The position numbers and the translations under genes were made by a program. A model generated the notes under the pieces. That model worked only from the letters and a program-made list of their open reading frames with translations, did not search any database and was not told the DNA's origin. Below are positions 1 to 60,772 of a DNA stretch of 64,000 nucleotides, one piece after another. Origin of the DNA: Candidatus Rariloculaceae bacterium (GTDB lineage Bacteria > Pseudomonadota > Gammaproteobacteria > Steroidobacterales > Rariloculaceae); NCBI GenBank assembly GCA_965204155.1, contig OZ241971.1, forward strand, positions 128,100-192,099, read 5' to 3'. Each line of letters begins with the position of its first letter. Position 1 is the first letter of the stretch.

Positions 1-303
1 CAGGGCATATCGACGGCCGAATGGATCATGGCCGGCCCCTCCGGCTTCGGTTCCATGAAGTCCGTCACCACCCGGCTGCGGCCCGGGTACCTGCGCAAGA
101 ACGGCGTACCTTACAGCGACAGCACGGTCTTCACCGAGTACTGGGACGTTCATGTCCAGGACAACGGCGACCGGTACCTGGTCGTGACCAACACGGTGGA
201 GGACCCGGTCTATCTGCAGCTCCCGTGGATCACGGCCATCCACTTCAGGAAGGAAGACGATCGCGGCAGGTGGGACCCGACACCCTGCGACGCGCGGTTC
301 TGA
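1..303 (+). CDS. 3' end of a secreted WEG-module family protein; the gene starts upstream of the window
   Basis: Frame 1 is open from nt 1. The translation QGISTAEW...PGYLRKNGVPYSD...EDPVYLQLP...WDPTPC aligns with the C-terminal third of the 4932..5705(-) product (WQGHSAASW...PGYLRKNGVPYSGD...TDPANLTRP...WDPTPC). Confidence 0.65.
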   Translation, partial: QGISTAEWIMAGPSGFGSMKSVTTRLRPGYLRKNGVPYSDSTVFTEYWDVHVQDNGDRYLVVTNTVEDPVYLQLPWITAIHFRKEDDRGRWDPTPCDARF

Positions 304-324
304 CATCCTCAGGAGACAAAGCTG

Positions 325-1335
325 GTGACTCGAACAACTTTCGCTACGGCCCTGACAACCTGTTGCGCGCTGCTGATCGCGGCCGTTTCGGCCCAGTCCC
401 AGGTCCAGCTCACGGGCACGTACGAGGACCGCCTTTACGAGGACTACATCGAGCGCGGCCCCGGTTCGGACCTGGGCGACTACACCGGGATGCCGATGAC
501 CGACGAAGCCCGGGCCAAGGCGCTGAGCTACACGTCGAACATGCCCATGACCATCGAGCGGCAGTGCCTCTCGCAGGCGCCCTGGGTCGGACTCTACCGG
601 CCCCGGCTCTATCGGATCTGGAGCATCAATGACGAAACCGACGGCAGCGTCATCGCCTGGGTGGTGGCTGGCAACTATCTCAGGGACACGATCACGATCT
701 GGATGGACGGGCGCGAGCACCCGTCGGAAAACGCCTGGCACCCGTCCGGCGGATTCGCCACGGGCAAGTGGGAAGGCAATACGCTGACCGCGCGCATGAC
801 CCACGTGAAAACGGCCTGGATCAGGCGCGGCAACGGCATTCCCGGCAGCGATCGGACCACGTTCACGGTACACCTCACCCGCCACGGCGACCTGCTGACC
901 GTCACGGTTATCCAGGAGGACCCGATCTACCTGAGCGAGCCCCACGTCGTGAGCCGGGTCTGGCAGTACGAGCCCAATGGGCGGCAAGGCCCGGAGCGGA
1001 CGCAGTGCAATACGGCGAACGAGATCCCGTATCTCGAGGACAGCGGACTCGTGCCCCACTACCTGCCGGGAGAAAATCCGGAAGAAGACTTCATGGTCCG
1101 CACCTACAACATCCCGAAAGAGGCCGCGATGGGCTATGCCCATACGCTGTATCCGGAGTATCGCAACACCATTCGGGACAGCTACGTGCCGCCGGCCTCG
1201 TGCGGCCGCTACTGCTGCGGCTGGATCGAGCGGCAGGGGCTGCCGGGAGGCGCACCGAACCTGACCTGCAACGACGGTGGCTTTGCCGAACTCGGACCCC
1301 GAGGGCGCCGGCTGATTGAGGAGGCAACCGAATGA
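325..1335 (+). CDS. Secreted WEG-module protein of unknown function with a Cys-rich C-terminus
   Basis: GTG start 8 nt after an AGGAGA Shine-Dalgarno sequence. Signal-peptide-like N-terminus (ALLIAAVSAQSQ). Blocks IWMDGREHP...GFATGKWEGNTLTARMTH...EDPIYLSEP are shared with the N-terminal half of 6123..7967(-) and with the other WEG paralogs. Confidence 0.7.
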   Translation: MTRTTFATALTTCCALLIAAVSAQSQVQLTGTYEDRLYEDYIERGPGSDLGDYTGMPMTDEARAKALSYTSNMPMTIERQCLSQAPWVGLYRPRLYRIWSINDETDGSVIAWVVAGNYLRDTITIWMDGREHPSENAWHPSGGFATGKWEGNTLTARMTHVKTAWIRRGNGIPGSDRTTFTVHLTRHGDLLTVTVIQEDPIYLSEPHVVSRVWQYEPNGRQGPERTQCNTANEIPYLEDSGLVPHYLPGENPEEDFMVRTYNIPKEAAMGYAHTLYPEYRNTIRDSYVPPASCGRYCCGWIERQGLPGGAPNLTCNDGGFAELGPRGRRLIEEATE

Positions 1336-1793
1336 GAACAACTTTCCTGGCAGTCGCCGCGCCGGGCCGCGGGCCGGGCCGCAGTCCGTGGCACAAGATT
1401 TCGATGCAGGCGCTTTCCCTGGCAGGCGCCGCGCTGCTGATGGGCGCAGGAGCCTGGGGCCATCACTCGTTCGCCGCGGTTTATCTTGAAGATCAGGAGG
1501 TGACGATCGAAGGCCGCCTCGTGCAGTTCCTGTGGCGCAATCCGCATACCCTGGTGCACGTCATGGTCGAGCAGGAAGACGGCTCGAACGTGCGCTACGT
1601 GGTCGAATGGGGCTCGGCGACCCAGCTCGGCGCCACCGGGGTGACACAGGCAACGCTGCGGCCCGGCGACTACGTGGTGATCAACGGCAATCCCGGCCGC
1701 AACGTGGAGGACAACCGCGTGCGCCTGCTCAACTTCCTCAGGCCCTCCGACGGCCTGACCTGGGGTCTTCGCCCCGACGAGGTCTTCGACTGA
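1332..1793 (+). CDS. Small secreted HHS-module protein (probably the Pfam family named DUF6152; unverified)
   Basis: ATGA overlap with the stop of the upstream gene. A hydrophobic leader ends ...GAGAWG and is followed by HHSFAAVY...VTIEGRLVQFLWRNPH. An alternative ATG start lies at 1404. Paralogous to 1817..2215, 5712..6107 and the N-termini of 3159..4196 and 59582..60589. Confidence 0.75.
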   Translation: MRTTFLAVAAPGRGPGRSPWHKISMQALSLAGAALLMGAGAWGHHSFAAVYLEDQEVTIEGRLVQFLWRNPHTLVHVMVEQEDGSNVRYVVEWGSATQLGATGVTQATLRPGDYVVINGNPGRNVEDNRVRLLNFLRPSDGLTWGLRPDEVFD

Positions 1794-1816
1794 GGCCTGC
1801 CGGTCCCGGCGCGGTC

Positions 1817-2215
1817 TCAGAACCGCGAGGCCGGGATCACCGTGCCATCTTCCCGGACGATCTCGGGCGAGAACATCCCGTAGACACCCGTGGCCTTGGG
1901 CGGGTGCCCGGTAGCGATAATGGTTTCACCCGGCGTGAAAAACTCCGCCGACCAGCCCATCTTCTGAAGCCGAACGGCACCGGTGAACTCGATGATCCAT
2001 TCCTGTGTCTCGCCCTGCTCGTCGGTCACGTCCACGTAGAGGAACGGGTGGGGGTTCACGAACGTCCATTTCGTCACGACTCCATGGATTTCAACGGTCC
2101 TTTCCTGGTCGTAGAACGGCGCCGTGGAGTGGTGGGCACCGGCCGAACCCGTCAGGACCTGGTACCCTGCGGCGGCCGCGACGAGAGCCGGGAAGGCCAG
2201 GATGTTGCGTTTCAT
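1817..2215 (-). CDS. Small secreted HHS-module protein (DUF6152-like)
   Basis: Signal peptide MKRNILAFPALVAAAAG...SAGA followed by HHSTAPFYD...VEIHGVVTKWTFVNPH. Same architecture as the other HHS paralogs. Lies 28 nt downstream of the WEG gene 2244..3029. Confidence 0.8.
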   Translation of the reverse strand: MKRNILAFPALVAAAAGYQVLTGSAGAHHSTAPFYDQERTVEIHGVVTKWTFVNPHPFLYVDVTDEQGETQEWIIEFTGAVRLQKMGWSAEFFTPGETIIATGHPPKATGVYGMFSPEIVREDGTVIPASRF

Positions 2216-2243
2216 GCGTGCTTGCTCCCTGAATTCGCTCCGG

Positions 2244-3029
2244 TCAGCGAATCCCGTATTTCAAGTCTTCCTCGGGAATATACCGCAGAGGCGCTCGCGC
2301 CTGGGCGGGATCGCACGGCAGCCAATCCACCAATGGGGTGTCCGTCGGCTCGAACTGGTAGCTGAATCGAATGCGTTCGGACAGCATGAGCGGATCCTCC
2401 AGGACAACATCCACCGTGAGAACTTCACCGTCCCTGGAATAACGCTCGACCGTGCGCTTGGACGTTGACGAAGGTGCCATGGGAGACCTGTCGTTGATGC
2501 CGGCAGGATTGAATGCGTACCGGGTGGTCTCGACCAGGAGTTCGCCGTTCTCGTAGCGGCCGGTGGAATAACCCTGGATCGAGTAATCGTTGGCCGTGGG
2601 CTCCCGATGGCCATGCCCTTCAAGCCACACCGTGCGCCTCACGTCATCCTTCTCGAACCGGATGAACACGCGGTCCGCCTGTTGCTCGATGGAGAAATTG
2701 TACGGGTCGCCCAGAATCTGGGGAATGGTCACGGGAACACAGTCATACATCGGGTGCAGGGACTCGTCGAACGCTTCCTGCATTCCGATGCCCCTGGCAT
2801 TGAGCGGGAACTCGCGCGGACTGCCGAAGCCCCTTGCATCCGGTGCGAGTTCGTCCGGTCTGGCAAGTCGGATCCGCTGCCAGGCGGAGGAGAGGTCCGG
2901 AACCTCCGTAGCCTCCTCCTGAGCAGTAAGGTTGCCCGGGAGGGACGCGGCAAGAGCCATCGCAAGCGTCGCGACGGCACTGCCTGCAGTGACCCCTGGC
3001 AGCAAGGCGGGTTTCTCCGTGCAATACAT
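2244..3029 (-). CDS. Secreted WEG-module protein of unknown function
   Basis: Ala-rich leader. Blocks VWLEGHGH...GYSTGRYENGELLVETT...EDPLMLSER are homologous to the WEG blocks of the other paralogs. Co-oriented with the HHS gene and immediately upstream of it. Confidence 0.7.
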   Translation of the reverse strand: MYCTEKPALLPGVTAGSAVATLAMALAASLPGNLTAQEEATEVPDLSSAWQRIRLARPDELAPDARGFGSPREFPLNARGIGMQEAFDESLHPMYDCVPVTIPQILGDPYNFSIEQQADRVFIRFEKDDVRRTVWLEGHGHREPTANDYSIQGYSTGRYENGELLVETTRYAFNPAGINDRSPMAPSSTSKRTVERYSRDGEVLTVDVVLEDPLMLSERIRFSYQFEPTDTPLVDWLPCDPAQARAPLRYIPEEDLKYGIR

Positions 3030-3158
3030 GTTTTTCCCCGGGCGAATCGGTTAGCTGTCGATCAACCGATAGTATCAAACGTTCCGATTGTCGGGGCAGT
3101 GTCGGCGATTCGGGGTAAGATTTGAAGAGCCATCCAATTGAACCATCGGTGAAACCGT

Positions 3159-4196
3159 ATGAGACTGACTCTTGCTCTGACTACGGTCATGCTCCTTCCC
3201 TTCGCCGGACTTGCCCACCATTCGACCGGGGGATTCTACGACACGGGTACGACGATCGAGATCAGCGGAACCGTTACGGAAGTCTTCTGGCGCAATCCTC
3301 ACGTCGGCCTGACGATCGAAGTGGAAAACGACGCCGGCGCGACGGAGCTATGGGAGATCGAGGGCGGCGCCTGGAACACCGTGCAGCGGCGCGGAGTCAC
3401 GTCGCAGACCGTAGCAATCGGCGACATGATCAGGGTCGCCGGCAACCCAGCTACCCGCGGTGTGAAGGCCATCTGGACATCCCACATGCAGGTACCGAGT
3501 GGCGAAGAGTTCACGATTTCCGACCGCCCCGATCCGCCCCGCTGGACCGAACCGTCATCGCCGCCGACTGAGGTCTCCGCCGGCGCTACCGTGGCGGACG
3601 CAGAAGCCCCGAACGGCATATTCCGGGTCTGGAGTTCCGTACGCGGGTTTGGCGGTGGCATCGAGCCGCCCATACTCACGGCAGAGGCACAGGCGCTGAA
3701 AGACCGGTGGGATCAGGCCGTGGACGATCCGGGACTGCGCTGCGATGCGCCGGGAATGCCCAACGCGATCCTCAATCCCTATCCGATTCAGTTCATCGAC
3801 GAGGGCGACCGCATCCGCCTCCTGATCGAGGAGTGGGACGGCAATCGGGTGATCTACATGGATCCCGCGTCGACGCCGGCGGACCCGCCCGTCGATCGTC
3901 TCGGCCACTCCGTCGGCCGATGGGAAGGAAACACGCTGGTGGTCGAAATTGACCACCTGTCATGGCCTTACCTCGATGCGCAGGGTACGCCCATGAGCGA
4001 TGCCGTCACCATGGTCGAGCAATTCATACTTAGCGATGACGAGACGCGTATGAGTTATAAGGTCTCCGTCACCGATCCCGTGTACCTGACCGCACCCGCC
4101 GTATGGCAGAGATCCTACGCCTGGGTGCCGGGCGCCGAAGTCAAGCCCTTCGACTGCACGCTCAGGGAAACGGGCCGGAGCGTCTACGAAAACTGA
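3159..4196 (+). CDS. Secreted fusion protein: N-terminal HHS module plus C-terminal WEG module
   Basis: One continuous 345-aa ORF. Signal peptide ...PFAGLA is followed by HHSTGGFYD...ISGTVTEVFWRNPH (HHS module), a Pro-rich linker, then IYMDPA...GHSVGRWEGNTLVVEIDH...TDPVYLTAP (WEG module). Collinear paralog of 59582..60589(-). Confidence 0.8.
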   Translation: MRLTLALTTVMLLPFAGLAHHSTGGFYDTGTTIEISGTVTEVFWRNPHVGLTIEVENDAGATELWEIEGGAWNTVQRRGVTSQTVAIGDMIRVAGNPATRGVKAIWTSHMQVPSGEEFTISDRPDPPRWTEPSSPPTEVSAGATVADAEAPNGIFRVWSSVRGFGGGIEPPILTAEAQALKDRWDQAVDDPGLRCDAPGMPNAILNPYPIQFIDEGDRIRLLIEEWDGNRVIYMDPASTPADPPVDRLGHSVGRWEGNTLVVEIDHLSWPYLDAQGTPMSDAVTMVEQFILSDDETRMSYKVSVTDPVYLTAPAVWQRSYAWVPGAEVKPFDCTLRETGRSVYEN

Positions 4197-4272
4197 CTGT
4201 TTGCGGAGAAGCATTCGTCGCAAACTGCAGCGTGCATTGCGCAACTTTGCCGTGCGCTTCGAATATCCAGAA

Positions 4273-4572
4273 TCACGGCATGTACCTGTCGATATCCAAA
4301 GCCCCATGGAACACGCCAAGCACATCGATCCGATCCGATTCATCGCGTCGGAGGTAGGCGATTCGATAATGGCCATAGAGCAACACGCGAATTTCTCCTT
4401 CTTCCACAGTACGGTAGCGATAGCCGATATCGGGAAAGTCTCCAAGAACTTGCGCCTTATCGTAAATGCCGTTTACAACCCTGGCAGCGGCGTCGGGATT
4501 CTCCTGTGCGATGTAATCGAAGATGTCATGTAACCACTGTTCCGATTCGTGCGTCCACCTCAGCCGCGCCAT
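4273..4572 (-). CDS. Type II toxin, RelE/ParE superfamily
   Basis: 99-aa product with typical ParE/RelE size and C-terminal pattern (...IRVLLYGHYRIAYLRRDESDRIDVLGVFHGALD). Overlaps the upstream small gene by 13 nt. Local GC is visibly lower than the flanks. Confidence 0.8.
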   Translation of the reverse strand: MARLRWTHESEQWLHDIFDYIAQENPDAAARVVNGIYDKAQVLGDFPDIGYRYRTVEEGEIRVLLYGHYRIAYLRRDESDRIDVLGVFHGALDIDRYMP

Positions 4573-4745
4573 AACCTGATCCGCCGCGCTAATTCCCTGT
4601 CATCGATCACCCGATCGGCCCGGACATCCTCCATCCCTCTCGCAATCATCCGGTCGAAAGTCAGTGCCCGCATGATTTCCTCGTAGGATGCGTCCTCCGG
4701 TTGGGTCTCAACTACCTTTCTCATCAGTTCCTTTGCTGTGGACAT
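4560..4745 (-). CDS. Putative antitoxin partner of the RelE/ParE toxin
   Basis: 61-aa acidic protein directly upstream of the toxin gene and overlapping it, which is the canonical antitoxin-toxin order. The family was not identified from sequence alone. Confidence 0.6.
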   Translation of the reverse strand: MSTAKELMRKVVETQPEDASYEEIMRALTFDRMIARGMEDVRADRVIDDRELARRIRLWRG

Positions 4746-4931
4746 GCTCGGTTCCTCTGTTGAGATTCTGCACTCGTGCTATCACCTTCGCGTTCGGCAG
4801 AGAATGGCTCGTCGACGTCGACGAGAGCATCCATCCAGAACTGCCCTGCTCCGCGAAACCATGCGGATATGATGAAGCATATGCCATGCCGAGCTTGGCC
4901 GAAACCCAGATGGCTATGGCGCAGCGACAAT

Positions 4932-5705
4932 TCAGCGGGGATGGTCCACCCGGCAGGGGGTCGGGTCCCAGCCGCTGCCGTCGTCCACCTGCCTGAAGTG
5001 GTTCGTGACCGCGTAGGGTCGCGTCAGGTTGGCGGGGTCCGTGACGATGCTGGTGACGACCATCCAGCGATCGCCGTTGGGCTCGGTGAAGACGTCGAAG
5101 TGCTCTTCAAGTACCGCATCGCCGCTGTACGGCACGCCGTTCTTGCGCAGGTAGCCCGGCAGCATGTTGGTGGTGGTGACCTTGAGGTAACGGGCATCCT
5201 CGGCGCTGGATTGACTCAACCAGGACGCCGCCGAGTGTCCCTGCCATGAGGGCGGCCCGGCTTCGGTTTCGTCGAAGTGCAGCAGCCGGGTCTGCGTACC
5301 GGAGTCGATGTCGATCTGCAGCGTTTCGTCGTCGGCCCACTGGATGTGCAGCCGCCCCGGCAGGCGCATGATGGAGGCAGCGCCGTAACCCCGGCATTCG
5401 TTCCCGGCGTCGTCGCCGGGGTTCCAGGCATCGGCGTACTCGCGCGACTCGCCTGTCAACGGCAACATGCTGTAGTTGCCCTTCGGCGGCATCAGCATGC
5501 GCAGGTGCCAGTACTCGCTGACCACGGAAACCCAGTACCCCGTCAGGTCCTGGGCGGCGGCTTCGCGTCCGCTGCGGGGGTCGGGGGGTGGTGGAGGCCG
5601 GTCGAAGAACTGGGCAAGCGCATCGCTCGCACTGCCCAGCGTCAGGGTCAGGACGAGCAGGCAAACGGCGCCTTGCATTGAGCCACCCTGTGAACGGCCG
5701 GACAT
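4932..5705 (-). CDS. Secreted WEG-module protein (PGYLRKNGVPYS subtype)
   Basis: Signal peptide (AVCLLVLTLTLGSASDALAQ) and a poly-Pro stretch. The C-terminal part is homologous to 1..303 and more distantly to the other WEG modules. Starts 6 nt after the stop of the HHS gene 5712..6107. Confidence 0.7.
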   Translation of the reverse strand: MSGRSQGGSMQGAVCLLVLTLTLGSASDALAQFFDRPPPPPDPRSGREAAAQDLTGYWVSVVSEYWHLRMLMPPKGNYSMLPLTGESREYADAWNPGDDAGNECRGYGAASIMRLPGRLHIQWADDETLQIDIDSGTQTRLLHFDETEAGPPSWQGHSAASWLSQSSAEDARYLKVTTTNMLPGYLRKNGVPYSGDAVLEEHFDVFTEPNGDRWMVVTSIVTDPANLTRPYAVTNHFRQVDDGSGWDPTPCRVDHPR

Positions 5706-5711
5706 GGCCCG

Positions 5712-6107
5712 CTAGCGGACCCGGCCGCGCCAGGACCACCCGTCGCTGGGGCGCGTGACCTCGTGCAACAGCAGCCTGTTGTACCCGGAATCCCGCGGCG
5801 GAAGGCCGCTGGCCACGATCTGCTGACCGGGCAGCAACGTCGTTCGGGTCAGCCGCGCCTCGGACAACTGGTTGATGGAGGCCCACTCCAGCACCCAGGT
5901 TTCCACGCTCCCGTCGGCGCCGGTGACATCGACGCGAAGAAACGAATGCGGGTTGCGCCACACGAGTTCCTTGACCACCCCCTGGATCTCGATGGGATCG
6001 GAATCTTCGTCGTACGTGGCCTGGAACGAATGGTGCGTCCAGCCGGCGCTCGAAACCGCCAGCGCGGCAGCACCGCCGAGCAGTGTCCTCACATGCACTT
6101 GCGTCAT
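5712..6107 (-). CDS. Small secreted HHS-module protein (DUF6152-like)
   Basis: GAGGAGAG Shine-Dalgarno sequence upstream. Leader ...AVSSAGWT followed by HHSFQATYD...IEIQGVVKELVWRNPH. Lies 15 nt downstream of 6123..7967. Confidence 0.8.
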   Translation of the reverse strand: MTQVHVRTLLGGAAALAVSSAGWTHHSFQATYDEDSDPIEIQGVVKELVWRNPHSFLRVDVTGADGSVETWVLEWASINQLSEARLTRTTLLPGQQIVASGLPPRDSGYNRLLLHEVTRPSDGWSWRGRVR

Positions 6108-6122
6108 CGGATCTCTCCTCGG

Positions 6123-7967
6123 TTATCTCGCCAGGCTGTCGTAGGCAGCCCCGACGAACATGTCGGTGGTCCAGTCCCCGCTGTCGCTGCCATAGCGGGC
6201 ATCGTATCCCCACGTGGGCCCGGCGGCGATGATCGTCTCCCGCGTCATCCCGCTGTCGATCATGGCCAGGATCCGGTCGCGGATCACGCTCACCATGTCA
6301 CGGTAGTAGGCGACTTCCGCGTAGTCGGCGATGCGTCCCCGTCCGGGCACCACGAGCGTGCCGCCGGAGGAGTTCTCCGCCGGTGCAACGATGCTGATCA
6401 GGTAGTTCAGCGCATCCACAAGCGCCTGAATGCCACCGCCCGTGTCCGGGTCGATCCGCGGGAAGCGGGTCAGGTCGAGCAGATCGCCGGCGCTGACCAC
6501 GTCGGACTTTCGAAACAGCACCACGCTGTTGGAATCGCTGGTGCCCGGCCGATGGGTAATGACCACGGGTTCGTCGTTGAAGTGCAGCCGCTTCCATGGC
6601 GTGGAATAGGTATTGTCCGGCCATCCGCCCTCCGGCAGGGGCTCGCCGCCGTCGGGAGGCACGATCATTCGGGCAAATACGCTGAGATAGGCGATGACCG
6701 ACGCCTTGTCCCTGCCCAGCGCACCCTGGGGACCCTGGGCGTAAGTCTCGGCTCGCCAGGGAACCTGCTCCCCGGCTGCGGCGATCAAGTCGTTACCGCC
6801 GGTATGCTCCCGGGTGTGCGTGGTGTTGACGATGTACCGGATCGGGCCGTCGGAGATGGTGCGGATGGCCTCGAGCACTGCCTCGCTCATCGACTCGACC
6901 CCCGTATCCACCACCAGCACGCCGTCCTCGCCGGCCTGCACGGAGATGTTGGCGCCGGCGCCGAAAAGCGCAAACACATTACCCTGCACTGGCAGCACCT
7001 GAATCTCACCCGGCTCCGGCCCTCCCTCCAGTTCGACGCCCCATATGGGTTGGAGCCCGATCTCTTCCCCCTGCGGGCGCATGAACGGCGCGGCAGGGTC
7101 TGCGCCCGCCGGGTTGGTTTCCATGGCTGCCAGGTCGTCGACGTACCCGGGCAACATCGTGCTCGCGCCGCCGAGCTTCGCCTCGTAGGGCGTTTCGAAC
7201 TCGTCGACCCGGTCCGGGTCCAGCCCGGGCAGCGGACTCTGCCCCGGGAGGAAATGGGATACCGAACCGCGGGGGACGACGGTTTCGGTTGCCTCCTCGC
7301 AGGGGTATGGGGCCATGGGACGTTCGGGAGAGTCCACCCACATGTTGGCACTGCGAATATAGGGCTCCGCCAGATAAATGGGGTCGTACATGATCGTGGT
7401 GGCCTGAAGATAGTCGCCGATGCGCCTCCATCGCGTGCGCACCGTCGTGCGGTCGCTGCGCATCAAGCCGGTGCGCCGGATATAGGCCTCCTTGAGGTGG
7501 GTGGTGGTGGTGACCAGGACATCGCCCTCCCACTCGCCCGTGGTGAACCCGCTCCAGGTGTGCGGGGCGTTGGCCGGCGGATGGGGACGGCCGTCCAGCC
7601 AGATGAAGGTTTCCTGTTGCTCCATCTGAATGTGTCCGCGATAGGCGATGATCTGTTGCGTGGCCCGGTCGACGATGGGCAGGAAACGGATCTGGGAAAG
7701 CGGGCCGTCCAGAGAGTAGTCCCACGCGTGGGGCCGGCACACCCACTCGGCCGTGTCGAATTCCTCGGCGGACCAGCTATGGGCGCGCCTGCGTCCGTCG
7801 ACGCTCAATGGAATACCGGCCGCATCGCCGGTGTCACCGCTGCCATCCTGGTCGCGGGGCAACGGAACCCACATGCCGGTGATATCCATCTGCGCAACGG
7901 CCGGTGCAGTCCCGAGCACGCAAAGCAGCGCCCAGATGGTCAGCAGTGCGATTTTCCTTCTCAACAT
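6123..7967 (-). CDS. Secreted fusion protein: WEG module plus metallo-beta-lactamase-fold domain with a non-canonical metal motif
   Basis: Signal peptide (LLTIWALLCVLGTAPAVAQ). The N-terminal half is homologous to 325..1335 (IWLDGRPHP...GFTTGEWEGDVLVTTTTH...YDPIYLAEP). The C-terminal half has an MBL-like layout (VLVVDTG...IVNTTHTREHTGGN...HRPGTSDSN...SAGDLL). Confidence 0.75.
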   Translation of the reverse strand: MLRRKIALLTIWALLCVLGTAPAVAQMDITGMWVPLPRDQDGSGDTGDAAGIPLSVDGRRRAHSWSAEEFDTAEWVCRPHAWDYSLDGPLSQIRFLPIVDRATQQIIAYRGHIQMEQQETFIWLDGRPHPPANAPHTWSGFTTGEWEGDVLVTTTTHLKEAYIRRTGLMRSDRTTVRTRWRRIGDYLQATTIMYDPIYLAEPYIRSANMWVDSPERPMAPYPCEEATETVVPRGSVSHFLPGQSPLPGLDPDRVDEFETPYEAKLGGASTMLPGYVDDLAAMETNPAGADPAAPFMRPQGEEIGLQPIWGVELEGGPEPGEIQVLPVQGNVFALFGAGANISVQAGEDGVLVVDTGVESMSEAVLEAIRTISDGPIRYIVNTTHTREHTGGNDLIAAAGEQVPWRAETYAQGPQGALGRDKASVIAYLSVFARMIVPPDGGEPLPEGGWPDNTYSTPWKRLHFNDEPVVITHRPGTSDSNSVVLFRKSDVVSAGDLLDLTRFPRIDPDTGGGIQALVDALNYLISIVAPAENSSGGTLVVPGRGRIADYAEVAYYRDMVSVIRDRILAMIDSGMTRETIIAAGPTWGYDARYGSDSGDWTTDMFVGAAYDSLAR

Positions 7968-8222: not shown

Positions 8223-8636
8223 ATGACAATGCATTACTCGAAGTTCGGATTCGCGGCCGCCGTACTGCTGTTTTCACTGCAAGGCGGCGCGCAGGTACCG
8301 GAGGACGGGCTGACGTCCCGCGAGCTCGGCATAAGCCTTGAATCACCGATTTCCCGTGTCGAACTGATCGAGCGCGGCGAAGCCGTATACAATTACTGGT
8401 GCAATACCTGCCACGGACCCGAGATGCTCAAGCCGGGTACCGCAGCGCTTGCAATCAAGTACCGCGGAGAACTCCCGGCCACGTTGACCGAGCGCACCGA
8501 CATGGTGCCGGAATTCGTGGAACTGATGGTCCGCGAGGGTATCTCGATGATGCCGTTTTTCAGGCCGACGGAAATCAGCAATGCGGACCTCGATGCCGTG
8601 ACCGCCTACCTCACACAAAATACCGGAGAACTATGA
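8223..8636 (+). CDS. Monohaem c-type cytochrome, probable small subunit of a p-cresol-methylhydroxylase-type flavocytochrome
   Basis: Signal peptide, a single CNTCH (CxxCH) haem motif, and a downstream Met-rich segment (SMMPFF). The stop overlaps the start of the flavoprotein gene (ATGATG at 8633). An alternative start at 8229 sits behind AGGGA. Confidence 0.75.
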   Translation: MTMHYSKFGFAAAVLLFSLQGGAQVPEDGLTSRELGISLESPISRVELIERGEAVYNYWCNTCHGPEMLKPGTAALAIKYRGELPATLTERTDMVPEFVELMVREGISMMPFFRPTEISNADLDAVTAYLTQNTGEL

Positions 8637-10246
8637 TGGCAATACCCCCGGGCGTTAACGAACAGGACTTCCGGATAGCGCTCGGCGAATTCGAGAGCGC
8701 CGTGGGCAGCGACTGGGTATTCACCGAGGACGAGGACACGCGCCTGTACCGTGACGCCTACTCGCCGGTACAGAACGAGCCCGAAGAGATTCTGGTGTCC
8801 GCCGCCGTCGCGCCGGACAACACGGAGGAGGTCCAGCAGGTCGTTCGCACCGCCAATCGCTATCGCATTCCGATTTATCCGATCTCGACCGGCCGCAACC
8901 TCGGCTATGGCGGTTCCGCGCCCAACCTGTCCGGTAGTGTCGTGCTGGATCTCAAGCGCATGAATCGCGTAATCGAGGTCGACGACAAGCGCCACTACGC
9001 CATCGTCGAACCGGGCGTGTCGTACTTCGACCTGTATCGCTACATCCAGGACCGCAATCTGAAGGTCCTCATCGACTGCCCTGACCCGGGCTGGGGCAGC
9101 GTGGTCGGCAACGCGCTCGATCACGGGGTCGGCTATACGTGGGGCGCCTATCGCGACCATTTCATCTCGCACTGCGGCATGGAAGTGGTCCTGCCGGACG
9201 GCGAGCTGATGCGTACCGGCATGGGCGCGCTGCCCGGCGCCGACACCTGGGGCGAATACCGTTACGGTTTCGGTCCGCACGTCGATGGCCTGTTCTCCCA
9301 GGGCAACTTCGGCGTGGTCACGAAGATGGGGTTTCACCTGTTCCCGGAGCCGGAAGCCTATCTGAAGGGAACCGTGTCCGTACCGGCGCGGCGCGACATC
9401 ATCGATCTTGTCGCGATCGTGAATCAGCTCGAACACGCCGGCCTGATCGGTATGCCGCGCTACAACACGCCGCTGACGGCGCATTTCTCCGAGCCCGAGG
9501 TCGCGGAGATTCTGAATCAGCCGTTCGCCCGTTCCGCGCAGGACCTCGAACGCTGGGCACAGGGCAACGACATGGCCTACTACCGCTGCGAACTCCAGTT
9601 CTACGGGCCCAGGGAAACCGTACGGGCCAACTGGAACTACGCACAGCGGCTGCTCGGCGATATCCCGGGCGCGAGATTCAGCCTCGATCATGAACTTCAG
9701 TGGCCTATCACGGCCGACGAAGTCGAGGGATTACACAAGGTGGCGCTCGGCATTCCGAACATGGAGATCTTCCGGCTGGGGACCCGGCCTGACGCCGACA
9801 CGCTGGGCTGGGACGGCGAGATGTGGTTCGCACCGCTCATCCCGAAGTCGGGGGAAGCCGTTTTGGAAGCGCAGCAAGTCTTCACCGAAGCCTTCAGGGA
9901 AATGGGGATGCGGTCGTTCACCCACCCGGCTTCCACCCCGGCGACCTGGATGTACCGGGCGTTTATCTTCATCATGGGATTCCCGGTATCGCGGATCGAC
10001 GTGGAGGCGAATCAGCGCCAGCGCGAGGCGTTTACGCACCTGGCGAACCTTGGCGCAGAGCGCGGCTGGGGCGAGTATCGAACGCCGCCGATCTTCCAGG
10101 ACCTGATCATGGGGCACTACTCGTTCAACGATCACGCGTTGCGGCGGTTCAGCGAGACCCTGAAGGATGCAGTCGACCCGAACGGTATCATTTCCGCCGG
10201 CCGCGGCGGTATCTGGCCGAAGCACATTCGGGAGCGCAGCGCGTAG
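8633..10246 (+). CDS. FAD-linked oxidase, 4-cresol dehydrogenase / vanillyl-alcohol oxidase family flavoprotein subunit
   Basis: About 537 aa. Family-typical N-terminus (FEDAVGSDWV-like: LGEFESAVGSDWVFTED...YRD) and FAD-binding PCMH-type domain (IPIYPISTGRNLGYGG, VVLDLKRMNRVIEVD). The ORF-track start at 8399 lies inside the cytochrome gene. The ATG at 8633 gives the expected length. Confidence 0.8.
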   Translation: MMAIPPGVNEQDFRIALGEFESAVGSDWVFTEDEDTRLYRDAYSPVQNEPEEILVSAAVAPDNTEEVQQVVRTANRYRIPIYPISTGRNLGYGGSAPNLSGSVVLDLKRMNRVIEVDDKRHYAIVEPGVSYFDLYRYIQDRNLKVLIDCPDPGWGSVVGNALDHGVGYTWGAYRDHFISHCGMEVVLPDGELMRTGMGALPGADTWGEYRYGFGPHVDGLFSQGNFGVVTKMGFHLFPEPEAYLKGTVSVPARRDIIDLVAIVNQLEHAGLIGMPRYNTPLTAHFSEPEVAEILNQPFARSAQDLERWAQGNDMAYYRCELQFYGPRETVRANWNYAQRLLGDIPGARFSLDHELQWPITADEVEGLHKVALGIPNMEIFRLGTRPDADTLGWDGEMWFAPLIPKSGEAVLEAQQVFTEAFREMGMRSFTHPASTPATWMYRAFIFIMGFPVSRIDVEANQRQREAFTHLANLGAERGWGEYRTPPIFQDLIMGHYSFNDHALRRFSETLKDAVDPNGIISAGRGGIWPKHIRERSA

Positions 10247-11194: not shown

Positions 11195-14100
11195 CTATTC
11201 CCTGCCCGCTTCGGCAATCATGACCAGCGAGGGCAGCAGGAACAGGATGAAGAGGCCCGAGAAGATCAGCCCGCCCAGCATGCTGACCACGAAGGGGACC
11301 AGGAACATCAGTATATCGCTTCGCTCATAGAGCAGCGGCGCCAGCGCCAGAACCGTCGTCAGGCTGGTCAGAAAGACTGCGCGGAAGCGATGCCGGGTGG
11401 CGGCCGATGCCGCGGCAATGGCAGGAAGCATCTCGTTCTCGCGGCGCAGGGTGTTGTATCGGTCCATCAGGACCAGCGCGTCATTCACGATCACGCCCGC
11501 AACACCGATCAGGCCGAACAGGGACATGAACCCATAGTCCCATCCCAGTATCCAGTGGCCGAAGACCGAACCGGCAAACGCGATCGGAACCCCGACGACC
11601 GCGATCAGGGGCTTCCAGTAACTCCTGAGAAACGCCGCGATGAGCACGTACATCGCAATCATCACCAGGGGGACGAGGACTCGCAGCGTGTCGAGCATGG
11701 ATCTCTCTTCCCTGGCGCTGCCGTCCGGCTCGATGACCAGGCCGGGGTACATTGCGAGCAGGTCGGGTATCACGTTCTGATTGACTTGCCGCCTGGCCAG
11801 CAGCGGTGTCACCACCGCGGGGTCGGCCTCGCCGGTCACCCTTGCGGTCTGCTGCCCGTCGATACTGGTCAGCGCCGACAACTCCCGTCGCTCAACCAGG
11901 TTCGCCACGGTGGACAGCGGGATCTCGCCAACGCCTCCGGGCCTGAATATTCGTTCGTTGGCCAGTTCGCGAAGGCTTTGGCGCTGCTCCTCGGGGTATC
12001 TCACCACCACCTTGATTTCGTCGGCGCCGCGCTGAAGCCGCTGTACCACCGCTCCGTGGAAATTCGAGCGCAACTGCGCGCCGATCGATCCGGTCGTCAG
12101 GCCGGCGGCGTGCCCTTCCGGCGTGAGCTCGATTTCCAGGTGCCGTTTGCCCAGCGCCTGACTGTTCGCAACCGCATAGACACCCGGTACGTCTTGCATA
12201 CCGGCAACCAGGTTGTTGGCGGCTTGCCGAAGAATCTCGGGATCGTCATGCTTTACGGCATAGGCAATTCCGGACACGGGCCGCGTGACTCCGGTGTAGT
12301 ACCTGATGTTCGCAAGGTATGAGACGTCACCGACATTCTCGCGCAACTGACGCTGGACCTCCTGAATGGACGCCTGGCGCTCCGGTCTGTCGTTCAGGTG
12401 AACCACGACCGAAGCCTGGTGACTGTTGATGCGCGCCAGCGCCTGATTGGGCGGCGCGAAGAAACTGCCGGCCATGACGCTGATCGACTCGATCGGTGTT
12501 CCGGTGCTCTGGCCGTTGATCCGTTGCGCCGCATCCACGAATCGCTCTGCCGTGGCAAGAGTCGTTGCGAAGGGCGTTCCCACCGGTAGCGCCAAGTCCA
12601 CCTGGAGGTCGTCGGACGCATTGATCATTTCATCGAAGTAGACGACCTGTACGGCTTCGCTGCGCATCAGCACCAGGGCAAAGACCACAATCACGGCGCC
12701 GCAGGTCGGCGCGAACCAGACGCGTTGCACCGACCAGGACACCGCCGGGACGACAATATTGTCCCGCATCGCGGCCAGCCGTTTCCGCACCCGGGCCTGA
12801 AAGTCGCTCAGCGGCGGGACGCTCCAATTCCTTTCGTGGGACAGGTGCGACGGCAGGATGAAGAAGGCTTCCACGAGCGAAACGACCAGCACGAAGAACG
12901 CCACGTACGGAAAGACACTGACCATCTGAACCCTGATCGGGGTGACGAACAGGAACGGCAGGAAGGCGAGAATCGTCGTCACGGCGCCGATGGTAATCGG
13001 CCCGACCATGGCTCGCGCTCCCGAAACTGCCGCCTCCAGTGCCCCCTTGCCGCGCTCCCGTTCCGCGGCAATGCTCTCGCCGACCACCACGGCATCGTCC
13101 ACGACGATGCCCACCATCAGGAAGAAGGCAAAGATCGTCCCGAGATTCAGCGTCATGCCCGTGGGAGCGAAGAAGATCAACGATCCCAGGAAGGACAGCG
13201 GAATGCCCACGGTGATCCAGACCGCGACGCGCAGGTCGAAGAACACGATGAGGCAAATGAAGACCAGAATGATCCCGATCACGGCATTCTGAACGATGAG
13301 CGAGATCCGCTCCACGGCATCGCCTGCGCGATCGTTCCACATTTCCACCGCGATACCGGCCGGGGCCGAATAACCGGCAAGCGAGTTCCTGATCTCCTCG
13401 CCCATCGCCACGATCGACTGCTGCTCCGCTGCGTCGACGCGGACGAACACCGCCGGATCGCCGTCCACCCGGGCAATGATGTCCTCGTCCACAAATCCGT
13501 CGCGGATGTCAGCCACATCGCCCAGCGTGAGCATTGTTCCGTCCATCCTGGCGATCAGCGGAATGTCCTCGAATTCTTCTCCGGTCTGCCGTTTCGCCAC
13601 CGTATGCAGTACCAGGCCGCCCGAGTCCGTGCGCAGTTCCCCAAACGTCAGGTTGAGGGACGCGCGCTCCACGGCGTTGGAGATCTGGAGGATGGTGAGC
13701 GAATGCCGCCGCATCTCTTCCTCGCTCAATTCGATGGTAATCTCGCGATCCCTCGTACCGAGCAGCGCCACCTGGGACACGGATGGCAACTCCAGCAGGT
13801 GCACGCGCAGATCCTCGGCCGCGAGCCGCAATTCGTCCTCCGTGGCCGATGCGGACGACACCGCGAGTGTCATGACCTCGATGTCGAGCCTGTCGTACTG
13901 GACTTCCGGTTGTTCGGCCGTCAGCGGCGGGAAATTCTCGATGCGGTCCACCGCACTCTGTACGTCGTCCAGAACCGCGTCGGCATTCGCGAAGGTTGCC
14001 AGCTCGACCCTGATCTCTCCCCGGCCTTCGTACGCCGTCGCTACAACGCGCTCCACGCCCGGCAGACCGACCACGTTCTCCTCTACCCGGCGTACGATGT

Positions 14101-14290
14101 CCTCCTCGACCTCCCTGGGAGAGGAGCCGGGAGAGACAACCGTCACCGATACGGATCTCAGATCGAGATCCGGATAACTCTGAACCGGAAGATTGCGTCC
14201 GGCAATCAAGCCGCCGACGATAAAGAACGCCATGAGCAGATTGGCGGCGATCGGATTCCCGGCGAAATATGCAATCGGCCCTGATCTCAC
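11195..14290 (-). CDS. RND efflux transporter permease (AcrB/AcrD/AcrF family)
   Basis: 1031 aa. Typical N-terminus (FAGNPIAANLLMAFFIVGG), 12-TM layout and two large periplasmic loops. Confidence 0.9.
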   Translation of the reverse strand: MRSGPIAYFAGNPIAANLLMAFFIVGGLIAGRNLPVQSYPDLDLRSVSVTVVSPGSSPREVEEDIVRRVEENVVGLPGVERVVATAYEGRGEIRVELATFANADAVLDDVQSAVDRIENFPPLTAEQPEVQYDRLDIEVMTLAVSSASATEDELRLAAEDLRVHLLELPSVSQVALLGTRDREITIELSEEEMRRHSLTILQISNAVERASLNLTFGELRTDSGGLVLHTVAKRQTGEEFEDIPLIARMDGTMLTLGDVADIRDGFVDEDIIARVDGDPAVFVRVDAAEQQSIVAMGEEIRNSLAGYSAPAGIAVEMWNDRAGDAVERISLIVQNAVIGIILVFICLIVFFDLRVAVWITVGIPLSFLGSLIFFAPTGMTLNLGTIFAFFLMVGIVVDDAVVVGESIAAERERGKGALEAAVSGARAMVGPITIGAVTTILAFLPFLFVTPIRVQMVSVFPYVAFFVLVVSLVEAFFILPSHLSHERNWSVPPLSDFQARVRKRLAAMRDNIVVPAVSWSVQRVWFAPTCGAVIVVFALVLMRSEAVQVVYFDEMINASDDLQVDLALPVGTPFATTLATAERFVDAAQRINGQSTGTPIESISVMAGSFFAPPNQALARINSHQASVVVHLNDRPERQASIQEVQRQLRENVGDVSYLANIRYYTGVTRPVSGIAYAVKHDDPEILRQAANNLVAGMQDVPGVYAVANSQALGKRHLEIELTPEGHAAGLTTGSIGAQLRSNFHGAVVQRLQRGADEIKVVVRYPEEQRQSLRELANERIFRPGGVGEIPLSTVANLVERRELSALTSIDGQQTARVTGEADPAVVTPLLARRQVNQNVIPDLLAMYPGLVIEPDGSAREERSMLDTLRVLVPLVMIAMYVLIAAFLRSYWKPLIAVVGVPIAFAGSVFGHWILGWDYGFMSLFGLIGVAGVIVNDALVLMDRYNTLRRENEMLPAIAAASAATRHRFRAVFLTSLTTVLALAPLLYERSDILMFLVPFVVSMLGGLIFSGLFILFLLPSLVMIAEAGRE

Positions 14291-14377
14291 GGCAGCTCCT
14301 TGAATTTCAACTTTCTGGTCGCGCAGGCGGTCTGGCTGGCAGGGCGGAGTATTTCTTGCCCCACATTTGAGTGGGGG

Positions 14378-15463
14378 CTAGGGCCCGCTTTCCATCACTT
14401 CGACCTGCAGTCCCTCTCGCGCGCCGGGCAACGTGCCGACGACGACCCCCTCTCCACTGTCGAATGCCTCGACCACCAGGCCCGCACTCGTGCGCCCGAT
14501 CGCCCGTGGCGCAACGGAACTCAGGGCGCCATCGCTGACGATCCAGACCGTATCCCTTTCCTGCAGGACGGCTTCGGGCAGCACATACACGTTTTCGAAC
14601 GCGGGCCCGTCGATTTCGACCGCCACGAACGTGTTCGGAAGGGGCAGCGACTCCGTCGGCTGATCGCCCGAAAACTCGAAGAACACCGATGCCAGGCGCG
14701 TCTGCGGCGCGAGTACGGAGGAAACTCGCACGATTTCCGCGTCGTATACGGCCGAATCCGCATAAACTCGAGCGGTGCGCCCGATTGCCGGCTCCAGGTA
14801 GTCCAGGTCGTCCAGGCTGACCGGTGCGTCAACCTCCAGGTCGTCGGGCCGATAAACAACGCCCATGATCGCCTGGGCGTCGACATACTCCTGGGGACCG
14901 ACCAACTCCCCGACACTCGTATCGGCCGCGATGACCCGCACATCGTACGGAAGCGAAATTTCGGTTCGGCTGAGTTCAAGCTCGGCCAGCCCCAACGCCG
15001 CCCGGGCGCTCTCCAGTGCAGCCTGCGCCGCACTACCGCCCTGGGCCGCCACTCTGGCTTCGGCCTCGGCGACCAGGCCTTGAGCCGCCGCGACCTGTAG
15101 TTCGTACTTTGCCGGATCAATCCTGACTATGGGTTCGTTCGCGGCGATCGTTCCCCCGTTGCTGAAGTTTGGCGATACCCAGCTTATGCGGCCCTCCACC
15201 TCGGACATCACCGACACGCGATCCTGCGCTTTCACCGTACCCGTCAGCTCGACCGCAAGCGACTGCGAGGTCGGTGTCGGCTGGATGACGTTGACAACAG
15301 GAGTCCCCGAGCCGCTCGCGACACCGGAACCGACGTCCAGTTCCACGCGAGTCGGAGCCCGCGCAAAGTACAGGGCGACAATCACCACGACCAGTATCAG
15401 GACTGGCTGTGCGTACCCGAGCCACTGGCGGCGGCCGGTGCTATCGGCTGGTTCGTTGGACAT
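14378..15463 (-). CDS. RND efflux periplasmic adaptor (membrane fusion protein, HlyD family)
   Basis: Single N-terminal TM (VLILVVVIVALYF), a coiled-coil Ala-rich hairpin and beta-barrel segments. Lies upstream of the RND permease. The start was chosen at ATG 15463 (MSNEPAD). Confidence 0.8.
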   Translation of the reverse strand: MSNEPADSTGRRQWLGYAQPVLILVVVIVALYFARAPTRVELDVGSGVASGSGTPVVNVIQPTPTSQSLAVELTGTVKAQDRVSVMSEVEGRISWVSPNFSNGGTIAANEPIVRIDPAKYELQVAAAQGLVAEAEARVAAQGGSAAQAALESARAALGLAELELSRTEISLPYDVRVIAADTSVGELVGPQEYVDAQAIMGVVYRPDDLEVDAPVSLDDLDYLEPAIGRTARVYADSAVYDAEIVRVSSVLAPQTRLASVFFEFSGDQPTESLPLPNTFVAVEIDGPAFENVYVLPEAVLQERDTVWIVSDGALSSVAPRAIGRTSAGLVVEAFDSGEGVVVGTLPGAREGLQVEVMESGP

Positions 15464-15681
15464 GTTGGTTTCCGGTGCCCGTTGGAGTGCAGAGTTTACG
15501 TTGTTGCAGTGTTTGTTCTTGCGTTTTGTGCATAACCGAGACCAATATCTCGCGCCTGCCCCAGAGAGAATACCCGCAACATCGGTTCGATAAAAGTCAC
15601 CGGCTCGTTTTGCCATCGGCCGTTGTCTGCAGGATCACTACACACACTCAGTGCAGTGCGCCCGTTGGCAGGGTATCCGCG

Positions 15682-21088: not shown

Positions 21089-21107
21089 CAGTGCTCCTTC
21101 AACCGAC

Positions 21108-60685: not shown

Positions 60686-60772
60686 CGGCCATCAGCACGC
60701 AGCATTAGTGATACACCTTCGAATTATCTATGCTATCGGCCCCGAACGTCACAAGAATTGCAAGGATTCACC

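Follow-up and report, generated by a model that had tools for sequence, protein, structure and literature searches.

A recurrent array of secreted DUF6152, module-B and degenerate metallo-beta-lactamase proteins in Candidatus Rariloculaceae and other bacteria

The window, i.e., the whole stretch of 64,000 nucleotides (nt) of a Candidatus Rariloculaceae contig that was analysed here, has its nearest relatives in metagenome-assembled genomes of the same gammaproteobacterial family, and its left end is occupied by an array of genes for secreted proteins. The array is built from two modules, A (a DUF6152 domain) and B (a family of its own), to which a third, a degenerate metallo-beta-lactamase (MBL) domain, has to be added, and one further gene of the same make-up lies apart from it near the other end of the window. 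The three secreted module types are fused only to one another and are arranged in fixed multi-gene cassettes. The original prediction had suggested for the array a two-component system of obligately paired, expanded paralogs. What it had observed was borne out, while its interpretation stood only in part: the components number three, the paralogs are ancient, the dependence between A and B runs one way, and the array has ties with the outer membrane and with cytochromes. None of the outcomes that had been named beforehand as refuting the original prediction was encountered. The ten open reading frames (ORFs) concerned, with the evidence from Pfam profiles or from a hidden Markov model (HMM) of module B, are the following.

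1..303, plus strand: B0, a module-B gene of which only the 3′ end lies in the window (module-B HMM E 5e-35; 48% identical to B3)
325..1335, plus strand: B1, module B with a Cys-rich C-terminal extension of ~100 amino acids (aa) (>2,400 homologues, no Pfam domain)
1332..1793, plus strand: A1, a stand-alone DUF6152 domain (predicted oligonucleotide/oligosaccharide-binding fold, OB-fold) with predicted cleavage between AWG and HHS (PF19649, 70.3 bits)
1817..2215, minus strand: A2, a stand-alone DUF6152 domain with predicted cleavage between AGA and HHS (PF19649, 82.3 bits)
2244..3029, minus strand: B2, a stand-alone module B (module-B HMM E 7e-82; BLASTP to AB2 1e-7)
3159..4196, plus strand: AB1, a natural A-B fusion (PF19649, 73.6 bits; >500 full-length fusion homologues)
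4932..5705, minus strand: B3, the last gene of a conserved B-MBL-A-B cassette (module-B HMM E 7e-80; the cassette order recurs in metagenomes)
5712..6107, minus strand: A3, the DUF6152 protein of the B-MBL-A-B cassette, with predicted cleavage between GWT and HHS (PF19649, 73.1 bits)
6123..7967, minus strand: B4-MBL, an N-terminal module B (~7200-7967) fused to a degenerate MBL domain (~6123-7130) (module-B HMM E 8e-91; Lactamase_B, 30.7 bits)
59582..60589, minus strand: AB2, a second A-B fusion, apart from the array, with predicted cleavage between VNA and HHS (PF19649, 52.1 bits)

The coordinates and strands of all ten ORFs were confirmed, as were the positions of the five A copies and of the seven B copies of ~200 aa, and the spacing given for the genes (gaps of 21, 28, 6 and 15 nt, and an ATGA overlap at 1332) proved correct. 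The GC content of the array ORFs is 0.74-0.89 at the third codon position (GC3) versus 0.46-0.51 at the second (GC2), which is the pattern of real genes in this GC-rich genome, and the ORFs are therefore gene-like. B1 begins with a GTG codon that is preceded ~10 nt upstream by AGGAG; the A1 start at 1332 yields an unusually long leader, and its translation possibly starts further downstream. A2 lies downstream of B2 in the same transcription unit, and in AB1 the A part (~3159-3560) is followed by a linker of low confidence and the B part (~3600-4196). The left end of the array is cut by the window edge; in a 96%-identical relative (L006) it extends further upstream, where B0 is preceded by genes for a LysR regulator and an MBL and by three additional A/B genes. 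B0 itself is the first B gene of a conserved MBL-B0-B1 operon, and in the relatives a B gene of 260-286 aa is always found directly upstream of B1. With a profile built from the seven B copies, no further A or B copies were found elsewhere in the window.

Module A had been read as DUF6152, and the profile scores leave this reading standing: all five copies match PF19649 with 52-82 bits, the gathering cut-off being 27 bits. In BLASTP comparisons among themselves the copies gave E-values between 1e-6 and 1e-25 for all pairs but one, which was weak (0.016). HHS, a Tyr, a Gly, NPH, a Glu and two further Gly are invariant across the five; of the WxNPH block described earlier, the NPH is invariant and the Trp is not, A2 reading FVNPH. 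The Sec-type leaders that had been proposed for the array proteins were supported, and the motif HH[STAG] stands right after AxA-like residues at −3 and −1 in all five copies of the window and in ~85 A proteins. The mature N-terminus of A is accordingly placed by sequence-based prediction at the His-His that follows signal-peptide cleavage. Residue conservation was read from an alignment of 66 A-B fusion proteins, in the A part of which H20, H21, S22, W44, P47 and H48 are invariant and D28, E34, R45, N46 and E68 nearly so, whereas the invariants of the B part are mainly Gly, Pro and Cys. This clustering of the polar invariants in A, and of Gly, Pro and Cys in B, led to the functional site being placed in A, where it would probably be metal-binding, and to B being taken for a barrel that binds or scaffolds. 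Neither Met nor Cys is available in A as a ligand. In an AlphaFold2 (AF2) model of the AB1 fusion the A part is an OB-fold, matched by Foldseek to SSB, PriB and the N-domain of lysyl-tRNA synthetase (LysRS); a weak match of AB2 to DUF4131 reflects the shared OB-fold, not kinship with ComEC. Module A is thus a member of a family for which there was no described fold, partner or function, and no mention of DUF6152 was found in any paper.

The seven B copies are only 20-48% identical and are joined transitively by BLASTP (B1-B4 at 1e-28, B0-B3 at 5e-25, AB1-AB2 at 8e-75 with 39% identity over 329 aa, and cross-links from 1e-7 to 3e-4). Two Cys are conserved in every complete copy, the first of them falling upstream of the truncated 1..303 fragment, and their conservation in the sequences suggests a disulfide. 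No Pfam or NCBIfam model exists for module B, 28 diverse members gave no Pfam match even at E <= 10, and sequence and profile searches of the PDB found no relative of either A or B. The earlier statement that neither module matches a characterised family was upheld in that the Pfam, NCBIfam and PDB sequence searches returned only DUF6152. The B family is very large: its profile retrieved 12,177 cluster representatives (clustered at 50% identity) at E <= 1e-3 and 5,324 at E <= 1e-10, and 23 subtypes at 45% identity were distinguished in 60 loci. B1 is very highly conserved: identity among its homologues from Gammaproteobacteria, Acidobacteriota (Vicinamibacterales) and Acidimicrobiia is 65-75%, and the alignment across phyla has 120 invariant columns. 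Six Cys are invariant in B1, four of them in the C-terminal extension (residues ~230-336; YCCGWIERQG...LTCNDGG, SCGRYCCGWIERQGLPGGAPNLTCNDGG), which is kept from Gammaproteobacteria to Acidobacteriota, holds an adjacent Cys-Cys and a Gly-rich Cys tail, and is modelled by AF2 with low confidence. Such extra Cys are found only in the B1 subtype, the other B subtypes and A being without any Cys other than the disulfide pair.

The AF2 model of the AB1 fusion, made from the 66-sequence alignment, has a predicted local distance difference test score (pLDDT) of 87 and a predicted template modelling score (pTM) of 0.84, and consists of the OB-fold followed by a 10-strand barrel. The best PDB matches of the barrel in Foldseek were CRABP, FABP and SAHS, with a probability of 1.0 and a template modelling score (TM-score) of ~0.5 relative to the target, and a separate model of B1, of low confidence (pLDDT 67), matched FABP, CRBP, avidin and lipocalin. 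Both models show strand-rich domains, and across the two the calycin matches had probabilities of 0.97-1.0, TM-scores of 0.50-0.59 and root mean square deviations of 5-8 Å. Module B is hence predicted from the models to be a calycin-type (FABP/avidin-like) beta-barrel. Like the calycins it would be a barrel of antiparallel strands with a helical insertion behind the first ones; its consensus has a “GxW” at the first strand, and it is periplasmic. In contrast to them, it has no detectable sequence similarity to any Pfam calycin family (E <= 10), and its predicted barrel is larger (~190 aa) and carries the conserved disulfide, with the TM-scores staying at 0.5-0.6.

The original prediction recognised two components, and the one that it did not name is the C-terminal ~335 aa of the 6123..7967 product, a Lactamase_B (PF00753) domain. 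Residues 339-511 match PF00753 with 30.7 bits versus a cut-off of 22.7, and the orthologues score 28-50 bits. Degenerate MBLs of this kind were found in 53 of 60 loci and count as a third core partner. In the window its motifs read THTREH, GTSDSN, AGD and PGRG, the first, second and last of which replace HxHxDH, H and PGHG; nearly all metal ligands have been lost, and HxHxDH with the distal His and Asp ligands is not found. HxHxDH is intact in five of 111 array-type MBLs, and the rest fall into two classes. Those of class one have SADADH and are followed by a B gene in 25 of 32 cases; those of class two have x[H/E]R[D/E][D/E][H/Y/F], with an Arg at the place of the third ligand, and are followed by an A gene in 63 of 74. 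Examples of the second class are seen in L012, L016, L034 and L050, in the metagenome loci L065-L144, and in the window itself (6123..7130). The class-two Arg suggests, by the sequence pattern, a pseudoenzyme pocket that would bind an anion rather than a metal. The idea that the His-His of A replaces the His-x-His lost by the MBL, by which intact MBLs should be without A, was also considered; only five MBLs are intact and two of these are followed by A, which neither supports nor excludes it.

Among curated models, TIGR04558 and TIGR04559 come closest to the array MBLs; they stand for SoxH-related hydrolases of a “quinoprotein relay system” and are themselves uncharacterised. The closest structure is the unpublished PDB entry 8d2z, for which no paper was found. 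These nearest sequence relatives are likewise periplasmic and lie near c-type cytochromes and, in one locus, a pyrroloquinoline quinone (PQQ) dehydrogenase. The array MBLs are nevertheless not members, with scores of 34-78 bits against cut-offs of 300 and 280, and they differ further in the rarity of HxHxDH and in having no SoxYZ-like carrier. A more distant likeness is to the type III alkylsulfatases (SdsA1, Pisa1, YjcS), which also combine an MBL and a hydrophobic-ligand-binding domain in one secreted protein and are weakly matched by the array MBL profile (~E 1e-4); in the array, however, the partner is an N-terminal domain, predicted to be a calycin barrel, and not a C-terminal SCP2 domain, and the binuclear Zn site is lost.

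The arrangement of the modules was followed in 59 fetched loci, which were scanned with profiles made here for A, B and MBL and with a simple GC3-based gene caller; the genome loci were anchored on B1, and an independent set of 80 metagenome loci was anchored on A by means of a four-sequence A alignment. Two cassettes recur, MBL(I)-B0-B1(-A1) and B4-MBL(II)-A3-B3, the first two genes of the latter being fused in the window as 6123..7967. In Acidobacteriota B4 and MBL are separate neighbouring genes, and the fusion in the window is colinear with the B-MBL-A-B cassettes found elsewhere. Both cassettes occur in Acidobacteriota, Gammaproteobacteria and Alphaproteobacteria, in soil and in marine bacteria. 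In the A-anchored metagenomes a B gene lies immediately downstream of A in 48 of the 56 testable loci (86%), another B within 3 kb in three and none in five, which gives some B in ~90%, and an array-type MBL is found immediately upstream of A in 42 of the 56. A-B adjacency therefore holds far outside this genome, as is also evident from the >500 clusters of A-B fusions. The pairing had been called obligate: A is nearly always accompanied by B, whereas B often occurs without A, as in 15 of the 54 B1-anchored genome loci, which have a B-B pair and no A within the fetched locus (nine of the 15 loci being >= 13 kb, i.e., at least that long). The long B-family proteins are fused only to Lactamase_B (14/30), to DUF6152 or to a second B. 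The folds, the fusions and the operon structure come directly from these tool results, as does the enrichment of neighbours described below.

The number of paralogs had been taken for an expansion, and that this was a recent one was not sustained: each copy in the window belongs to an old orthogroup, and B1 and A1 are ~65-75% identical between Gammaproteobacteria and Acidobacteriota (~64% for the A1 orthologues of Acidobacteriota). By sequence comparison the array genes are old, conserved subunits and not the product of a recent expansion. In other Gammaproteobacteria A-B pairs are found as B-A-TonB receptor, the operons in which the A2 orthologues occur, and as A-B. Such pairs are also carried by plasmids of cultured Sphingomonadales, arranged as A-A-B-TonB receptor-MarR in Croceibacterium (C. 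atlanticum 26DY36, plasmid NZ_CP011453.2, WYH_RS16150-16165) and as B-A-TetR next to beta-oxidation genes in Novosphingobium (N. humi, NYQ05_RS20620-20630).

TonB-dependent receptors, c-type cytochromes and a neighbouring p-cresol methylhydroxylase, on all of which the original prediction was silent, form the company of the arrays. Leaving A and B genes aside, the commonest of 144 immediate neighbours are 41 MBLs, eight PEBP proteins, fragments of an outer-membrane protein with CarboxypepD_reg and OMP_b-brl_4 domains, and several c-type cytochromes; no inner-membrane importer or transporter recurs among them. An orthologous TonB-receptor-like protein of ~1,130 aa is encoded in 39 of the 49 loci from outside the Rariloculaceae, mostly one to three genes from the array. 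Up to two genes away from A or B there is an enrichment of proteins with the CxxCH motif (31/456 vs 5/247; odds ratio 3.5, p = 0.006), and the cytochrome families involved differ by lineage (Cytochrome_CBB3 + DUF11, CytoC_RC-like, multihaem, PSCyt1). A PQQ dehydrogenase gene lies nearby in L002, and the regulators beside the arrays are of the LysR (closest to PcaQ), MarR (closest to BilQ/HpaR) and TetR types. In the window the array is adjoined by the two genes of a p-cresol methylhydroxylase-type flavocytochrome c, possibly a functional partner, which are divergent from B4-MBL.

8223..8636, plus strand: cytochrome c subunit of the flavocytochrome (Cytochrome_CBB3 match)
8636..10246, plus strand: flavoprotein subunit of the flavocytochrome (FAD_binding_4 match)

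The flavoprotein matches PDB 9h40_A, a p-cresol methylhydroxylase, with E 3e-173, and the sequence of the pair indicates a periplasmic oxidation of 4-alkylphenols in this organism. In the relative L001 both flavocytochrome genes, that of the cytochrome c first, come directly downstream of an AB1 orthologue on one strand, possibly in one operon with it. The flavocytochrome genes are adjoined by a resistance-nodulation-division (RND) pump (11195..15616, minus strand), consisting of a 1,031-aa permease closest to the multidrug HAE-1 models and a 412-aa adaptor, and the order of pump and flavocytochrome genes is the same in L001. A heavy-metal context was considered and rejected, the pump being nearest to HAE-1 and not to CusA/CzcA, and no copper-locus marker families being found among the 25 commonest Pfam families of the 144 neighbours.

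Several other features of the locus and its relatives may be recorded here. Between AB1 and B3 lies a gene for a ParE-family toxin (4273..4572, minus strand; PF05016, E 6e-14) with a 61-aa partner ORF upstream of it (4560..4745, minus strand), the ParE/antitoxin pair together spanning 4273..4745. The GC content of this region is ~0.55-0.57 versus 0.64-0.68, and in L006 the AB1 and B3 genes are ~60 nt apart without the pair; it looks to have been inserted recently into the array as a toxin-antitoxin unit. AB2 overlaps by 16 nt the start of the downstream O6-methylguanine-DNA methyltransferase gene (PF01035; 59055..59597, minus strand), and an Amidohydro_3 gene (~60770..62554) is divergent from AB2, near which there are no genes for an MBL, a cytochrome or further A or B modules. 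The perfect palindrome ATCGGTT-N11-AACCGAT (3046..3070), located in the divergent promoter between B2 and AB1, was rejected as an operator: it was found in none of the 147 fetched loci, and with two mismatches allowed it was matched in 14 of 100 shuffles. Scans for promoters and terminators gave hits no more numerous than in shuffled controls. A YbhB/YbcL-type PEBP gene (PF01161) lies directly upstream of an A1-type DUF6152 gene in L002, L004/L005, L030 and L034 (Acidobacteriota and unbinned), and none is present in the window. An 825-aa fusion of a radical S-adenosylmethionine (radical-SAM) domain and a methyltransferase is encoded a few genes from the arrays of unrelated genomes (L004/L005, 14082..16559, where it comes after a 538-aa pyridine-nucleotide-disulfide oxidoreductase, and L012, 16556..19033), and may be part of the wider neighbourhood. 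Further along the window there is a gene for a DnaE2-like error-prone polymerase (15682..19098, minus strand) with PHP, DNA_pol3_alpha, finger and OB domains, preceded by two ORFs without Pfam match (18914..20314 and 20321..21229, minus strand) that hold, by position only, the place of imuB/imuA in mutagenesis cassettes. Housekeeping genes are those for ComEC (41901..44222; DUF4131 + Competence + Lactamase_B), for a probable Mfd transcription-repair coupling factor (55461..58925, judged from the translation only) and for the C-terminus of SelB (63024..63989).

Three further kinds of known systems resemble the array, each of which was compared with it. ZinT is a calycin-like periplasmic Zn chaperone (PMC9175090), and ZinT/YodA shares with the array the combination of a calycin barrel, here a predicted one, and a His-rich N-terminus exposed by signal-peptide cleavage (PMC9175090); in the array, by contrast, the His motif is on a separate partner, the predicted OB-fold, and not on the barrel, and no homology was found by Pfam, NCBIfam or PDB sequence searches. 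The known histidine-brace copper proteins all need signal-peptide cleavage to unmask His1 (PMC10952591). Like these proteins, which include the lytic polysaccharide monooxygenases (LPMOs), CopC, YcnI, PmoB and X325/Bim1, module A is secreted and has an invariant His as residue 1 after the predicted cleavage, along with a second invariant His and an invariant Tyr elsewhere in the domain, and it keeps company with redox partners (cytochrome, flavocytochrome, PQQ enzyme), comparable to the electron donors of LPMOs (PMC10952591). It differs in being a predicted OB-fold and not an Ig-like or cupredoxin-like sandwich, in having two adjacent invariant N-terminal His, and in showing no sequence relationship to them. 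The MbnT-MbnP-MbnH loci of copper acquisition are laid out like the arrays: a TonB-dependent transporter of the outer membrane is accompanied by a c-type haem protein and by small, beta-rich secreted proteins that have His ligands, and an inner-membrane importer is not adjacent (PMC3621798, PMC9426467). However, the array proteins have no homology to MbnP or MbnH, neither of these families appears in the neighbour census, the array cytochromes are class I (Cytochrome_CBB3 + DUF11) or CytoC_RC-like and not MauG-like di-haem peroxidases, and no copper-marker genes lie near the arrays. The likenesses to histidine-brace proteins, ZinT and the MbnPH loci are to be taken as functional analogies, not as membership.

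The explanation that we tentatively prefer, giving it rather less than an even chance of being right, is that the array encodes a periplasmic, cytochrome-linked metalloprotein complex, in which a small organic cargo, brought in by a TonB-dependent transporter, is captured and undergoes redox processing. According to this explanation A, B and MBL would form a periplasmic hetero-oligomer, its subunits being supplied in two fixed sets, B-MBL-A-B and MBL-B-B(-A). The metal site of A would most likely be made of the N-terminal amine and the His-His together with the histidine of NPH and an invariant Glu and Tyr; the proposal follows the same logic as in the histidine-brace proteins, where cleavage of the leader unmasks a ligand (PMC10952591). 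B would be a disulfide-stapled, calycin-type barrel docked onto A, and its pocket would be the likely place for a small organic ligand, probably a hydrophobic or aromatic one. In the SoxH-like MBL the zinc ligands are lost in ~95% of the members, and it would most likely act as a scaffold or as an anion-binding pseudoenzyme. The cargo would enter through the dedicated TonB-dependent outer-membrane transporter, and the complex, acting in the periplasm, would exchange electrons with a c-type cytochrome, presumably in this lineage the neighbouring p-cresol-methylhydroxylase flavocytochrome. Its role would thus be to capture the cargo and process it by redox chemistry, not to hand it on to an importer of the inner membrane. 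We infer that a metal is bound, that the subunits form a complex, what kind of ligand is held and that redox chemistry takes place; the hints that were counted in favor of an organic ligand are the LysR, MarR and TetR regulators, the multidrug-type RND pump and the lack of a recurrent inner-membrane importer among the neighbours. A more daring form of the same thought would make the array a new class of periplasmic metalloenzyme, with a histidine-brace-like centre formed by the His-His of the OB-fold, possibly inserted into the MBL pocket, where the His-x-His of the MBL itself is lost. Such an enzyme would oxidise small substrates of a hydrophobic or phenolic kind, for the import of which there would be a TonB-dependent transporter of its own, would have its electrons carried by a dedicated c-type cytochrome and would be widespread in soil Acidobacteriota; we consider this doubtful.

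A number of results weigh against the cytochrome-linked complex. A cannot be its only functional centre, because many B-B-MBL operons are without A, and AB fusions also occur as solitary genes in unrelated contexts. No TonB-dependent receptor is present in the 64-kb window, and adjacency to one was seen in only four of 17 testable A-anchored metagenome loci. The adjacency of cytochromes is modest, a CxxCH protein being the next gene in ~20% of the MBL-A-B cassettes, and that of p-cresol methylhydroxylase is confined to the Rariloculaceae lineage. The calycin assignment of B depends on TM-scores of ~0.5-0.6 relative to the target and, for B1, on a model of low confidence (pLDDT 67).

The main rival dispenses with catalysis and has the system acquire or chaperone a metal in the periplasm, in the manner of ZinT-ZnuA and MbnT-MbnP-MbnH: the TonB-dependent receptor would import Cu, Zn, Ni or Fe or a chelate of it, the His site of A would capture the metal, and B and the MBL remnant would hold it or pass it on to metalloenzymes. 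The His-His at the predicted mature N-terminus, the invariant His and Glu of A, the proximity of receptor genes, the cytochrome c neighbours (as at the MbnPH loci), the lack of a dedicated inner-membrane importer nearby and the precedents of ZinT (PMC9175090) and of the histidine-brace copper proteins (PMC10952591) all fit such a role. Nevertheless, we find it somewhat unlikely, given that the regulators beside the arrays are organic-ligand types (LysR, MarR, TetR) and not metal sensors, that CopC, PCuAC, Sco, YcnI, DUF2946 and MbnPH (PMC9426467) are absent from the 25 commonest Pfam families of the 144 neighbours, that the RND pump of the window is of the multidrug type and not CzcA/CusA, that A has no Met or Cys to offer as ligands, and that a fixed four-subunit cassette with two different B proteins seems more than a chaperone needs. 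An organic cargo would also be handled by a redox-inert carrier of hydrophobic nutrients, in which FABP- or LolA-like B barrels ferry a lipid, sterol, aromatic or otherwise poorly soluble compound across the periplasm once it has been taken up through the outer membrane, and A and MBL are structural only. The calycin fold predicted by the models, the large diversification of B (12,177 clusters; 23 subtypes), the TetR and beta-oxidation genes beside the B-A pair on the Novosphingobium plasmid, and the nearby multidrug-type RND pump and phenol-oxidising p-cresol methylhydroxylase would all suit a carrier, yet it would leave unexplained the invariant polar His/His/His/Glu/Tyr cluster of A, the very high conservation of B1 (120 invariant columns) and the enrichment of c-type cytochromes, and it would have no conserved inner-membrane acceptor; we therefore regard it as quite unlikely.

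The kinship of the MBLs to TIGR04558/TIGR04559, their closest curated relatives, raises in turn the prospect of a Sox-like sulfur or thiol relay, with the SoxH-related MBL and the Cys-rich tail of B1 handling sulfane sulfur and passing electrons to cytochrome c. The six invariant Cys of B1, four of them in the tail, the cytochromes nearby and the PQQ dehydrogenase of L002 would be in keeping with it, but it appears very improbable in view of the scores (34-78 bits against cut-offs of 280-300), the restriction of the extra Cys to the B1 subtype, the degenerate metal site of the MBL, and the 144 neighbours, among which no Sox, Dsr or rhodanese genes recur. That the genes have no joint function at all, i.e., that unrelated secreted paralogs, or decaying copies, have been clustered by chance, might be thought from the AB fusions and single A-B pairs that also stand alone in varied contexts, and from the toxin-antitoxin pair inserted into the array; it is hardly credible with a gene order that recurs across at least three phyla or classes, fusions confined to the three modules, intact ORFs with a gene-like codon-position GC, and orthologues that are 65-75% identical across phyla.

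No publications on the family or the cassette were found, and nothing useful on the Rariloculaceae. We therefore take the cassette for a system without known counterpart, although it may yet prove to be one more form of TonB-transporter-linked acquisition. To DUF6152 the analysis adds a predicted OB-fold, a His-His that cleavage is predicted to expose, a near-constant partner in module B, and a context of MBL, TonB receptor and cytochrome. Module B, in turn, is a very large family, for which neither a Pfam or NCBIfam model nor a published description was found, and which is locked in cassettes with DUF6152 and the degenerate MBL. Among its carriers are some that rank with the most abundant and least cultured bacteria of soils (Vicinamibacterales), as well as marine Gammaproteobacteria; cultured carriers exist in Croceibacterium atlanticum and Novosphingobium humi. 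The company of receptor and cytochrome points to an unrecognised periplasmic activity, be it the uptake or oxidation of an environmental compound or the handling of a metal. Should the OB-fold of A indeed prove to carry a centre of copper or iron, it would be a new scaffold among the few proteins that ligate a metal via an N-terminal His.

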